A DNA stretch of 64,000 nt from an uncultured Candidatus Rokubacteria bacterium (GTDB lineage: Bacteria > Methylomirabilota > Methylomirabilia > Rokubacteriales > CSP1-6): NCBI GenBank assembly GCA_963758635.1, contig CAVWWD010000004.1:1-64000 (forward strand). Reading direction: 5' to 3'. Below the pieces are notes generated by a model, which saw nothing but the letters and a program-made list of their open reading frames with translations, did no database searches and had not been told where the DNA came from. This document shows, piece after piece, positions 13,797-19,480 of this stretch. Position 1 is the stretch's first letter. Every line of letters starts with the position of its first letter. The translations under genes were made by a program, and so were the position numbers.

Positions 13797-14104
13797 TCAC
13801 GCCGTGAGGTCCGTCACCGCGCGCGCCGCTTCGGCGGTGCGTCTGGCCGCTAGCAGCGCGAGGACGAGTAGACGCCGGCCGCGCGGCGTGGCGTGCAGCC
13901 GAACCGCAGCGGCCGCCAGCTCGCACGCCTCCTGGTCCCGGCGGGCGGCGAGGGCGGCGCGCGCCGCCCGCCGCAGCTCCCAGGCGCGGGCGGCCACGCG
14001 CATGACCGGCCCCAGGTCCGTTCCACAGCGTGTACACGCCGTCGCGTCCCGCCAGGGCGCACGGCAGGTTGGGCAGCGCGGGGTGCTCGGTTAAAAGTGG
14101 TCAT
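13797..14104 (-). CDS. Small zinc-ribbon plus helical protein (frameshift in the T run near the start)
   Basis: ATGA overlap with the Hsp70 stop; RCPTCRAPW...CTRCGTDL (two CxxC pairs), then Ala-rich helices. Confidence 0.65.
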
Positions 14105-15990
14105 CCCTCCTCGACGTAGAAGAGGAGGTCCGCCAGGTCGCCGCTGGCGGCGCGGAGCCGGTCCCAGTCCGTCGCCGCCGATCGCCTTCTCGATCGCCTG
14201 CTGGAGTCTCACCGCTTCTTCGCGGTCCTCGGCGCTCATGCGGTCGAGCAGGCGCTGCCCGCGCTCGAGCGACGCCGGGCCTCGGAGATCGCCACCCGCC
14301 GCTCGCGCCCCCTGCTGGTCGCCGGTGCTGCGTCCGGCGCTCTGGCCGCGCCGGCGCCCCCTCGTCGCGATCCGCCCGTTCGGGCTCAGCCTCTTCGAGC
14401 ATCGTCATCGACGGCCTCACTGTCCTCGTCGACCTCGTCCTCGTCCAGAGCCGACCCGCGCGAGGGTTTCCGCGTCCCCGAAGAGGTCGCGCATGCGCCG
14501 GCGGGCCTCCGCCGACCTGGGTGTCGGTCATCGCGGTCGTGGCGCCCTCGATGGTGATGTGCTTGGCCAGGCCGTGCGCTTCTCGGTGGCCGTCACGCGC
14601 AGGATGCCGTCGAGGTCGAGGTCCATCCGGCAGAGCACCTCGTTGCCGGCCGGCACCGCCGACAGGCCCTCGATCAGGAAGCGGCCCACCAGGATGTTGT
14701 TGAGCGCGTTGGGGTCGTCGCCCTGGTAGACGCTCACCTGCCACGCCTCCTGGTCGTCGACCATCGTGACGTAGCAGTCGCTCCGGCTGGCGGGCAGGGG
14801 CGTGTTGCGCGCGATGACGGGGTGGTAGCAGTGGTCGGAGGGGGCGGCCGTCGACGAAGCCGAAGTACGAGGGGCCGAACGAGTAGGGGGAGATGTCGAC
14901 GAGGACGCGATGAACGTCGTGGCCGGCCAGCCGGGCGGCCAGCACGCCAGCGCCGAGGGCGACGCAGAGGTCGGGGTGCGACATCCTGGCGCGGCGCCAG
15001 GCCCGTCGTGTCGCGCAGGAGCTGCGAGACCAGGGGCGTGCGGGTGACGCCGCCGACCAGCAGGATCTCGTCCACGTCGCCGGGCTGCTTGCCGGCGTCG
15101 GCGAGGGCGCGGTGCACGCTGTCGAGGGTGCGCTCGACCAGGTGGCGGATGAGGCGCTCGTACTCCTCGCGCGAGACCTCGAGGTCGAGATGCACGGGAA
15201 CGCCGTCGCGCGCGGCCAGGTGCTCCTCGCGCAGGCGAGTGTAGGGCTCGAAGCTGAGCCGCTTCTTGGCCTCCTCGGCGGCGCGCAGGACGCGGCTCAT
15301 GGCGCGGCGGTCGCCGCGGACATCGGGGGCGCCGGTGGCGAGGAAGCGGGCCAGGACGTGGTCGAGCAGGAGCAGGTCGAAGTCGTCGCCGCCCAGGTGC
15401 GTTGTTGCCATGGCTGGCTAGCACCTCGGTCACGTCGCCGGAGACCTGCACGAGGGAGACGTCGAAGGTGCCGCCGCCCAGGTCGTAGACGAGCACGGTG
15501 CGGTCGCCCGGCCTGGTCGCCGCCGTAGGCCAGCGCGGCGGCGGTGGGCTCGTTGAGGATGCGCACGACCTCCAGGCCCGCGATCTCGCCGGCGTCGCGG
15601 GTGGCCTGGCGCTGGGCGTCGGAGAAGTACGCCGGCACCGTGATGACCGCCTCGGCGCACCGGCCGTCCCAGCACGGCCTCGGCCCGGGTTCGGAGCGCG
15701 CGCAGGATCATCGCGGAGATCTCTGGCGGCGAATAGGTCTGCTCTCCCATGGCGACGCGCTCGCTCGAGCCCATCAGCCGCTTGATCGACTTGACGGTCC
15801 GCTCGGGGTAGACGATGTACTGGTTTCTGGCGGGGGTGCCGACCAGCGGCGTGCCGTCGGGCGTGAGGCCCACGAACGAGGGCATGATCTGCTCGCCCTC
15901 GGCGGCCAGCACCTGGACGTTGCCGTCGACGAGCGCGGCCACCTCGGAGTTGGTCGTGCCCAGGTCGATGCCGACGATTACATCAGTCAT
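14101..15990 (-). CDS. Hsp70/DnaK-family chaperone paralog (several frameshifts)
   Basis: [81 protein letters not shown]; ends [12 protein letters not shown]. Confidence 0.9.
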
Positions 15991-16749: not shown

Positions 16750-17036
16750 GGCCGGTCACCGCGCAGAACGTTGAGCCAGGGCCCGGGGCCGACGAACCGG
16801 CGCTCGTCGGGCACCTCGTCGACGAGCGACTCCAGATGCTCGAGCGGGGCCGGGCCGAACAGCCGCAGCGCCAGGCGGCGCTCCTCGTCGCGCACGGCGT
16901 CGTAGGCCTCGCGGACGCGGCGGAATCCCTCCGGATCACGATCGGGGGGCGCGCGCCGGACCGCCGCCAGATACGCGGCGCGCACCGCCTCGTCGTCGGC
17001 CCTCGCGTCGATCCCGAGTACCTCGAAGGGGTTCAC
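16746..17036 (-). CDS. Small J-domain protein with non-canonical PPD motif
   Basis: NPFEVLGI...ADDEAVRAAY...VRRAPPDRDPEGFRRVREAYDAVRDEERR; GTGA overlaps at both ends. Confidence 0.8.
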   Translation of the reverse strand: MNPFEVLGIDARADDEAVRAAYLAAVRRAPPDRDPEGFRRVREAYDAVRDEERRLALRLFGPAPLEHLESLVDEVPDERRFVGPGPWLNVLRGDRP

Positions 17037-19480
17037 AGGCGTTCTTCTCCAGGGAAGGCGAGGAAGTCGTCGAACAGGTCTCGCTGCTTCCGCCGCGGGG
17101 CCCGCCGCCGCTTGCCGCGCGGTGCCTTGTCGGCGGCGAACACCGGGACCTCTCGGTGCGCACGCTCGGCGCGGAGGCACCGGGCAATCTCCTCCGGCGT
17201 GGTGGCTCCGGCGTCGGCGGCGAGCCTGCGCGGGACCCACGGAGCCGGCTCGGGCGAGAGCGCGAGGGCATCGAGCGCGGACGAGGCCTCGCGGACGGCG
17301 TCCATGTCGCGGGCGCGGCCGGCCACCTCGCGCGCGGCGCGCAGGCAGGGCCACGCGCGGTCGCGATCGCGACGCGACGCGGCGGCCGCGAGTGCGTGGC
17401 CCCGCGCGAGGAGGAAGCGGTGGAGCAACGGCCCGCCGACGGCGAGCCCCTGGCCGGAGGCGGCGTAGGTCAATGCCGGGCGGCCCATCGCGAGCCCGCC
17501 GAGGCACAGCGAGTGAAGATCGGCCGCCGATGTGCCGTCGAGATCGTGCTCCACCCGGGCCAGCAGGTCGGGGGGCGCCACGAGGGGGCGATCCAGCGCG
17601 CGGAACAGGTCGCACGCGCGAGCCAGGGCCTGGGCCGTCTCGGCCGGCGAGGCCTGTGTCCGGCGCGTCGGGGGGCTCGAGGCCGAACGTCTCGCCCACC
17701 GATGACAGGATCAGCCACAGCATGGTCGGGTTGCCGAGGCGCGAGGCCAGCTCCTCGTGCAGCCGCACGGCGCCCGGCCCATCGCCGTTCCTGCGCATCG
17801 CCACCGACCGGACCGCGCCGAGGTAGGCGAACGTGTCGCCAGCGGCCGTGACGGGCTCCTTGTCCAGGCGGTCCAAGTCCGCCAGGGAGAGGGCGAAGCG
17901 GCCTTCCTTGATCCTCCGCTCCGCGCCGGCGAGGAGCAGGCGAAAGCGACTCTGCCGCACGTCGGGATGCACCCGGTTGATCGCCTCGGCCTCGTCGAGC
18001 CGCTCGATCGCCTTTCGGTGGGCGCCGCGCCGCTCGGCGGCGCGCACCAGGTACAGCAACGGCTCCGGGTCGCGCGGATGCGCCTGGCGCCACCCCTCGG
18101 CCTCGGTCTCGGCCCGCCGCGGATCGCTCGCCTCCCAGTGGGCGACGAGCGCGCGGAACACGCGCGGATCGGGATCGGCCTGCCGCGCGCGGGCCAGGAG
18201 ACGGCCGCGGTCGGCGCACTCGGGAAGCTCGCCGTCCCGGATCAGGACGTCGCGCTCCTCCTCGGACTGAACGTCGAACGCATCGAGCGCCTCGTCGCGA
18301 TCGGCGGGGAACAGCTCGGCCATGTGCAGCAGCACATGCGACGCCTCGCGCCCGGTCAGCGGTGTGGCCCCGGCGCGGTTGGCGCCGGCGAGGTAGCCGT
18401 CCCAGAAGATGAGCGCCTGGTCCCACGCCCCGATGCGCTCGAGCGCCAGCGCGATCAGCCGCGCGGTGTCCCGCTGCCACTGGATGTCCCGCCGGTCCCG
18501 CTGCAAGGCCGCGACCAGGGGCCGCGGACTCAGGTTCCGATGCGCCACTCTTTCAGAACCGTGGCCGCGAAGATCTGCTTGACGGACGCGGACTCGCAAA
18601 GGGGCAAGATCCGCTCGACGGCGGCCACGGCTGTCGACGCATCCTTCTCTTCGAGCGCGTGGACCAGCTGCTCCAGGTGGTTGCGGAGCGCCGGCCGTCC
18701 GCCGCCGACGGCCTTGGCGAGGGCCCCGGCGGCGGGCGATCGCCGGTCGAGCGGCGCCGGCGCGCCCACCAGGTGGTGCAGGACGGGCACGAGTCGGGCC
18801 GGCGCCGAGTCGGGCGGGATCGCGTCGAGATTGGCGCGCACCGCGCCGTCCGCGCGCCGGTAGTAGGCGTCGAGGGCACGGATCAGGAGCTTCCAGGGCG
18901 CCAGCGGCGAATGACGGGAGATCCCGTCGAGGGCGGCGAGCGCGCCCGGGGCCAGCGGACCGCTCGTCACCGCGTCGAACAGCCCGCTCACCGCCTTCGC
19001 GGCGCACCGCAAGAGATCGCCGGCCGGCAGGGCCTCCTCGTCCGCCAGCTGGCGCGGGTCTCTCAGCTCCCGCGCCAGGATCGCCTCGATCTCGTGCCGT
19101 CGCAGTGGGGTGGCCGAGGCCAGCTCTACCAGCAGCGACCGTAGATCTCCGCTGGCGATCGCCTTGCGCTGCTTCACGAGCGGCACGATGCGTTGGCGGT
19201 GGGCCGGGAACCGCTCTCCGACCAGCATGGCCAGCGCGTCGGCTTCGTCGTACAGGCCCGTCGAGAGCATCGCGCCGATCCGGGCCTCGTAGGCGGCGAG
19301 GATGAGCGCCTCCGCGTCGGCGCTCCGCGTCTCCTTGAAGAGCTGCTTGGCGAGATCGAGCGCCTCGCGCGCCTTGCCGGCCGCGATCAACGACGACTCG
19401 ATCCGGACCCGTGACGCCTCGGGGTCCGTCGAGGGCTGCACCGGGCGGCGATCGGCGGCGCGCTTGTCCCGCATGCTCAT
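17033..19480 (-). CDS. Large alpha-helical/TPR-like protein (~810 aa, frameshifts near 18530 and 17655)
   Basis: Continuous helical coding across three frames (LIAAGKAREALDLAK, SPLAPWKLLIRAL, DPEPLLYL..AAERRGA..KA); first gene of the coupled operon. Confidence 0.65.

Follow-up and report, generated by a model that had tools for sequence, protein, structure and literature searches.

We identify, in the genome of an uncultured Candidatus Rokubacteria bacterium, a five-gene cassette that encodes a real, mobile and specialised Hsp70 machine. The window, meaning the whole 64,000-nucleotide stretch analysed here (contig CAVWWD010000004.1, positions 1 to 64,000), carries this cassette on its minus strand at 13797-19480 in the order H-J-GrpE-Hsp70-Z, where H is a large helical-repeat protein, J a short J-domain protein whose HPD motif is replaced by PPD, and Z a small zinc-ribbon protein. 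The five genes very probably constitute a self-contained, private chaperone cycle. From the sequences, we propose that H may tether this Hsp70 cycle to DNA, here likely via the sliding clamp, so as to remodel or release a bound complex, a proposal whose chances we regard as even.

A five-gene cassette with overlapping reading frames

A sequence-only reading of this DNA had proposed five overlapping genes for helical-repeat, J (PPD), GrpE, Hsp70 and CxxC-CxxC proteins, and that layout held over the whole span. Neighbouring genes overlap at all four junctions (in order, by GTGA, GTGA, ATGACTGA and ATGA), both in the window and in an intact copy from a genome of the same family (G006; 89% DNA identity to the window copy). 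The sizes quoted for H, J, GrpE, Hsp70 and Z (812, 96, 256, 620 and 98 amino acids) are those of the intact G006 copy. The cassette features of the window are as follows.

17033..19480, minus strand: H, an all-helical TPR-like solenoid of ~812 amino acids whose tail is basic and carries QRDLF; six non-triplet indels
17072..17086, minus strand: QRDLF, a sliding-clamp-type motif of QxxLF form, preceded by a poly-Arg/Lys tract; read from the sequence
16746..17036, minus strand: J, a 96-amino-acid J-domain protein with PPD for HPD and a conserved C-terminal extension; intact frame
16941..16949, minus strand: PPD codons of J, read from the sequence
15983..16749, minus strand: GrpE-like exchange factor, extended at the N terminus by a conserved segment; six non-triplet indels
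14101..15990, minus strand: Hsp70 with intact ATPase residues, from residue maps and trees; twelve non-triplet indels
13797..14104, minus strand: Z, ~98 amino acids, with TPR-like helices after a CxxC-x9-CxxC zinc ribbon; two indels close to its start

Pfam models recovered TPR, DnaJ, GrpE and Hsp70 pieces from the window, with four of the five genes split across frames: as deposited, J is the only intact frame, and the other four genes hold 26 non-triplet indels relative to G006. Such frameshifts, together with gene debris on both flanks, would suit a decaying pseudo-operon, but short-read contigs from three runs of one study, which are near-identical to the window (0-13 substitutions per piece), lack these indels. 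Twelve indels are named singly as absent, and gap counts in the covering contigs add up to 25 of the 26; the indel at 15514 lies outside all listed short-read pieces. Because near-identical short-read contigs lack them, the indels are likely assembly errors, for which we assume a long-read origin, and the pseudogene reading was rejected. In-frame parts of the window proteins are also 79-95% identical to intact copies, and we regard decay as extremely improbable. The neighbouring MaoC-like dehydratase gene (19969-21138, minus strand) is itself broken by indels, and one of them, at 20006, is likewise missing from the short-read contigs, so further breaks in the contig may be errors too. Contigs of RNA run X7 yielded related sequence only and so do not establish transcription of the window cassette. 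The assembly errors and the sole intact frame of J, like the clamp-type and SSB-type tails of H described below, went beyond the sequence-only reading.

The gene order is conserved and patchily distributed

The cassette genes are coupled and co-inherited. All five complete genome loci that we aligned (G006, G016, G022 and two in G249, which share one contig) keep the order H-J-GrpE-Hsp70-Z, the G016 locus ending inside Z. A J profile found 31 metagenome loci; in 28 of them J lies beside cassette genes in the same order, and the three exceptions are the weakest matches. Most of these loci stop short of the end of the cassette; tblastn recovers all five genes in five of them, and another (L037) holds the full set once H is detected by profile. 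An Hsp70 query recovered the same order from a plasmid of Nostoc and four of the five genes from one of Acaryochloris, and cyanobacterial-type J is present in five plasmid records; plasmid searches with GrpE, H and betaproteobacterial H queries gave no match, the Hsp70 query alone revealing the cyanobacterial cassettes. Conservation of the order, one of the checks named in the sequence-only reading, is therefore borne out in genome, metagenome and Nostoc plasmid loci.

Occurrence is patchy: the cassette was found in 4 of 41 relatives, and in 9 of 251 genomes of the phylum, including 3 of 104 near-complete ones, with 20 candidates scored per genome. A further scan of genome contigs, made with a single protein query, reached close relatives only. 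H homologues form 873 clusters at 50% identity (E<=0.001), with source names that include Terriglobia, Deltaproteobacteria, Nitrospinae and Betaproteobacteria; their linkage to a cassette was checked for the loci analysed here. Two matches were discarded, a spurious one in Melioribacter (L011) and one in Subdoligranulum that proved to be an ordinary hrcA-grpE-dnaK-dnaJ locus. Two near-identical cassettes (L009 and L010) lie 25 kb apart on one contig with transposases around them, and both of their Hsp70 genes are frameshifted late in the gene.

The cassette Hsp70 is a sister of HscC

The sequence-only reading described a dedicated Hsp70 machine, and the genome indeed has its own DnaK, an HscA-like gene (on contig C5) and a housekeeping GrpE elsewhere. 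In a 26-row tree, the cassette Hsp70s form one clade with the cyanobacterial copies included (SH-aLRT 98), and an unrooted split with support 99 separates cassette plus HscC from DnaK plus HscA. Union with DnaK, which the earlier reading had named as a refuting outcome, was rejected (p-AU 0.0008). The tree used the first 520 residues, a quick search and four HscC rows, among which cassette Hsp70s and HscC formed separate sister clades (support 98 and 100); it replaced a first tree with one long HscC branch after eight close rows were dropped and eight added. Family scores fall below the DnaK cut-offs (491 versus 648 and 481 versus 823 bits; identity to DnaK 41-45%) and the HscA cut-off (394 versus 709), and the protein lies outside the HscA clade, with no HscB partner and with a GrpE loop, which HscA lacks. 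The earlier claim that the set matches neither housekeeping nor specialised Hsp70s stands for DnaK and HscA but needs qualifying for HscC, which is a sister clade and shares two indels with the cassette. Judged by sequence, this is the third Hsp70 of the cell, neither DnaK nor HscA, and kin to HscC by descent without being a member.

In residue maps, the ATPase residues D8, K70, E171 and T199 are retained, and the GrpE signature loop keeps its full length of 23-24 residues, as in DnaK, in ten of ten cassette proteins versus 17 in all four HscCs. The deletion of DnaK 76-101 leaves 7 residues between anchors, as in HscC, versus 28-31, but also occurs in two Bacillota DnaKs and hence is not diagnostic; an 8-residue insert in loop L1,2 gives 21 rather than 13 residues in ten of ten (17-22 in the four HscCs). 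Lengths span 581-639 amino acids. The interdomain linker reads DRVLVD (DnaK: DVLLLD), the position of DnaK V436 is Trp in 9 of 12, a bulky residue that we take to narrow the peptide pocket as in the V436F mutant, and in 9 of 10 the lid is interrupted by an acidic insert (at least 7 D/E in 12 residues) that takes the place of some of it. We infer from the altered linker, pocket and lid that the client range is narrow.

A histidine-free J protein co-varies with its Hsp70

J is recognised by Pfam DnaJ, and its predicted J fold (pLDDT 86), in which the loop is short and two helices are added at the C terminus, matches J domains in Foldseek. Among the J homologues listed, 119 of 120 carry PPD and one PPE, so that none has HPD, and both cyanobacterial copies carry PAH. 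The basic residues of helix II and the Pro-Asp pair are invariant in J homologues, and in the extension G61, P62, L65, R79, G83 and W87 are invariant across 60 aligned sequences.

The replaced histidine bears directly on function. Here and below, PMC8215388, PMC13254874, PMC9690074, PMC12309361, PMC7159879 and the Atc preprint (bioRxiv 10.64898/2026.09.07.749886) are cited for the portions of their text available to us. In known pairs, the HPD histidine contacts a backbone carbonyl and the aspartate contacts R167 and Q378 of the Hsp70 (PMC8215388), and replacing the histidine abolishes ATPase stimulation in every tested system, HPE alone being tolerated (PMC8215388, PMC13254874). In the cassette, R167 is kept wherever J has PPD, together with L391 and P419 in that clade, and both cyanobacterial Hsp70s whose J carries PAH have Gln at R167. 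This swap, a single event, is the change expected if J and Hsp70 still meet at the usual interface, and it suggests a private J-Hsp70 code in which PPD would pair with Arg and PAH with Gln. Q378 is Leu in 10 of 12 cassette Hsp70s, which cuts both ways for J function. A Pseudomonas HscC (L088:4010-5701) shows a further natural substitution at the J-binding site, with Lys in the position of DnaK R167.

GrpE of the intact copy matches Pfam GrpE (E 4.5e-22) and scores below all NCBIfam GrpE cut-offs; one relative (L020:894-1451) has an internal deletion of ~45 residues. Residues 31-98 of Z find TPR look-alikes in the ESM Atlas. As a guess, Z might capture the client in place of the zinc finger of DnaJ that J lacks. 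The Acaryochloris plasmid cassette has no annotated Z after its Hsp70 (L086:8989-10734), so Z may be dispensable.

H ends in a clamp-type motif, and some homologues in an SSB-type tip

AlphaFold models H as an all-helical solenoid (pLDDT 90) with a loose tail. Foldseek returned generic TPR matches only, with TM under 0.25 and no close solved relative, and the invariant columns (A, W, K, W) contain no catalytic set; an enzyme role was rejected on this basis. The tail motif QRDLF follows a low-confidence segment (residues 786-797), as befits an exposed terminal motif of clamp type, for which the consensus is QL[S/D]LF or QxxLF (PMC12309361). QxxLF occurs within the last 25 residues of 19 of 133 H homologues, against a shuffle mean of 0.25 and 5 of 2852 background open reading frames, and has been gained or lost at least nine times across the H tree. 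A betaproteobacterial subfamily homologous to H (HHalign 99.9% over 694 columns) has QxxLF in 90 of 115 proteins (shuffle 0.33), including QLDLF, QLSLF and the window's own QRDLFDD.

A second ending recalls single-stranded DNA-binding protein (SSB). An SSB-like acidic D-x-P-F tip closes 11 of the 133 homologues (shuffle 0.06; background 0 of 2852); the genome's own SSB ends DDVPF, as does the H homologue P0196, and one homologue bears both clamp-type and SSB-type signals. Basic tails and QxxLF trade off between subfamilies, being present in 34 and 90 of 115 betaproteobacterial proteins and in 115 and 1 of 115 cyanobacterial ones; proteins without the motif nearly always have a basic tail. On these endings, H tails may share the role of tethering to DNA or to machinery bound there, the clamp being one way of doing so. 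CxCxxC, a possible metal site, occurs in the last 260 residues of 56 of 133 homologues and is missing in the window's lineage.

In the cycle that we propose, H would dock through its basic tract and QRDLF tail, and J might bind H or Z through its Trp-bearing extension, by analogy with AtcJ-AtcC. The histidine-less J would trigger its own Hsp70 only, leaving the cycle insulated from DnaK and HscA; the altered pocket and acidic lid may accept a narrow client, possibly the basic tail of H, and the private GrpE would reset the cycle.

Several observations weigh against this proposal. Of 133 homologues, 114 lack QxxLF in their last 25 residues, although 11 have it further inside, and in the near lineage it is present in only 11 of 26 tails, where an amphipathic LFxxxxxFL helix is better kept. 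Position 2 of the motif is mostly G, K or R, where the consensus has L. The betaproteobacterial count comes from one subfamily, whose members are kin and not independent. Among the 115 cyanobacterial proteins a single one has QxxLF; homology between that large protein and H was undetected by HHalign (4-7%), although the two agree in position, in size and in the charge of the tail. The conserved neighbours of the genome loci include no replication or repair gene. Finally, under the histidine rule of the reviews, J may not stimulate its Hsp70.

The flanks record mobility

Upstream of H and downstream of Z, the window holds the following.

19816..19935, plus strand: N-terminal remnant, 39 amino acids, of a MazF/PemK toxin (Pfam PF02452, E 5.6e-11, positions 2-33 of 109)
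13657..13784, strand not assigned: 129 bp that duplicate the 3' end of the dehydratase-like gene (blastn and alignment; 82% identical to 20007-20135)

The sequence-only reading placed the cassette in an island-like setting near a toxin-antitoxin (TA) remnant, and both the setting and the remnant are real. The remnant lies 336 bases upstream of the cassette, is preceded by a likely MazE tail and is not a conserved part of the cassette; contig C6 carries a longer homologous stretch. Stretches 13657-13784 and 20007-20135 form an imperfect direct repeat that flanks the cassette. The flanks differ at every locus; a TA or mobile gene lies no more than ~4 kb away at 7 of 10 genome loci, a fraction for which no baseline was computed.

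Window: MazF remnant
G006: nucleotidyltransferase
G022: DUF433 and integrase
G249, both copies: transposases and integrases
G239: PIN
G175: nucleotidyltransferase-HEPN

The remaining three (G016, G217 and G176) show no TA or mobile gene within ~4 kb, two of them being on short contigs.

The anti-phage role that had been thought plausible did not find support. PADLOC 2.0 gave a single weak match for the five proteins, PDC-M61B (actin fold) to Hsp70 (E 3e-6), and among 72 flanking proteins it found single generic domains and no complete defence system; IMG/VR, searched with the H profile, and phage records, searched with J, gave no match. The flanking genes show mobility, not defence, and a defence role is unsupported.

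Further features adjoin the cassette. Gene debris at 13381-13784, downstream of Z, includes the dehydratase 3' copy and an unassigned 79-amino-acid fragment. One contig joins 13741 to 20139, perhaps an empty site or a product of the flanking repeat; this junction did not recur at 96% likeness and was not used. A thermonuclease gene (SNase, E 8e-24; 12682-13326, plus strand) adjoins the cassette, and short-read contigs are only ~90% alike around it, so this flank varies between strains. A large protein at 8102-11429 (minus strand; apparent frameshift near 10650), with weak amidase and M23 peptidase matches and a C2-like end, looks like a cell-wall-lytic pair with a LysM/peptidoglycan-binding gene at 11952-13010.

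Alternative explanations

Mobility invites a reading in which H is a clamp-blocking growth-arrest toxin resembling SocB, kept off by the other four proteins acting as a chaperone gate until stress or infection titrates them, making the cassette a chaperone-controlled toxin or abortive-infection module. The patchy occurrence in 9 of 251 genomes, the two copies on one contig, the plasmid copies and the TA or mobile genes beside 7 of 10 loci would all fit, and there are precedents: SocB uses the usual motif to bind the clamp (PMC9690074), and excess AtcB inhibits RNA polymerase until AtcJ and AtcC recruit DnaK (bioRxiv 10.64898/2026.09.07.749886). Several loci, however, sit among metabolic genes, no PADLOC model matches H, J, GrpE or Z, the flanks gave single generic domains, the IMG/VR search with the H profile and the phage-record search with J found no match, conserved polar catalytic residues are absent from H, and the motif is missing from many H proteins; we consider a gated toxin unlikely. 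H might instead be the dedicated client or assembly scaffold of the cassette, with its basic-then-hydrophobic tail docking the cassette Hsp70 and the likeness to clamp and SSB ligands incidental. An acidic lid insert in 9 of 10 Hsp70s facing basic tails in most H proteins would suit this, as would the finding that HscC binds peptides chiefly through their positive charge (PMC8215388) and the variation of the hydrophobic tip by lineage (QxxLF, DLPF, GFQELF), like that of pocket residue 436. Yet the tails reach exact QLDLF and QLSLF as well as an SSB-matching D-D-x-P-F, two replisome docking signals that are hard to obtain by chance, and the betaproteobacterial basic tract is weak while QxxLF is strong. 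We give this account a similarly low probability.

A different doubt concerns J, which could be a structural or inhibitory pseudo-J like Pam16, with the Hsp70 driven by H, Z or client alone. Its histidine is replaced in every copy seen, proteins of this sort are classed as presumably non-stimulating (PMC13254874), and Q378 is Leu in 10 of 12 cassette Hsp70s. Against that stand the invariant helix II basic residues and Pro-Asp, the retention of R167, L391 and P419 in the PPD clade, the Asp-to-His change that accompanies Arg-to-Gln, and a cassette that holds no second J gene, and we hold a pseudo-J to be very unlikely.

Relation to known systems and significance

Three functional parts are shared with DnaK-DnaJ-GrpE, as are the catalytic and allosteric residues of the Hsp70, whereas the cassette J lacks the G/F, zinc-finger and C-terminal domains of DnaJ and the Hsp70 is altered in linker, pocket and lid. 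E. coli HscC, which works with DjlB and DjlC, has in common with the cassette Hsp70 the 76-101 deletion, the L1,2 insert and a short tail, and likewise a sporadic distribution and a non-HPD J partner (PMC8215388). It has no GrpE loop or GrpE partner, whereas the cassette protein keeps the loop and has grpE adjacent; it is shorter (550-580 amino acids, with a shortened helix B, versus 581-639 with an acidic insert), and its loci encode J partners of 430-550 amino acids in another gene order, with no counterpart of H or Z, in place of a 96-amino-acid PPD protein.

Closest in logic may be the Atc system of Shewanella, a fixed-order operon with a short J whose C-terminal extension holds a crucial Trp. 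With its terminal Trp, AtcJ binds a partner encoded in the operon, and through this contact DnaK reaches an inhibitor of RNA polymerase (bioRxiv 10.64898/2026.09.07.749886); the chaperone is aimed at a central DNA machine, RNA polymerase there and, as we suggest, the clamp here. Atc differs in order (atcJ-A-B-C), in having HPD and PX7W rather than P-x10-W, and in using housekeeping DnaK where the cassette has its own Hsp70; GrpE is absent from the available text of the Atc preprint, whereas the cassette encodes one. By this analogy the cassette would work like Atc, as a member of neither Atc nor HscC. SocAB and other clamp-binding toxins also place a protein with a clamp-type motif under partner control (PMC9690074), but H is an 812-amino-acid solenoid that an Hsp70 would control. 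In GAP1-N2 GTPase conflict systems, Hsp70, GrpE, DnaJ and TPR domains likewise share one patchy neighbourhood (PMC7159879); as described in that portion of the paper, these systems centre on GTPase and FNIII proteins, neither of which is in the cassette or the scanned flank proteins.

No description of the five-gene system was found in the literature searched, which largely excluded subscription journals. A large J-protein survey left non-HPD sequences out of its main set (PMC10410713), which may explain why this J family was missed, and reviews, in the parts available, treat the HPD histidine as indispensable and count three known bacterial Hsp70 types. More tentatively, and with rather more doubt than confidence, the sequences may point to a widespread, self-insulated Hsp70 machine that services the replication fork through interchangeable docking mimics (clamp motif, SSB tip or basic DNA-binding tail) and a co-evolved, histidine-free J-Hsp70 code. 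As a widespread fourth Hsp70 type whose sole adjacent J is always histidine-less, with a matching change in the Hsp70, the cassette lets the HPD rule be tested directly and supplies an orthogonal J-Hsp70 pair from nature; related cassettes in cultured cyanobacteria make genetics possible. If the H tail binds the clamp, the cassette would be a dedicated chaperone tied to DNA replication.

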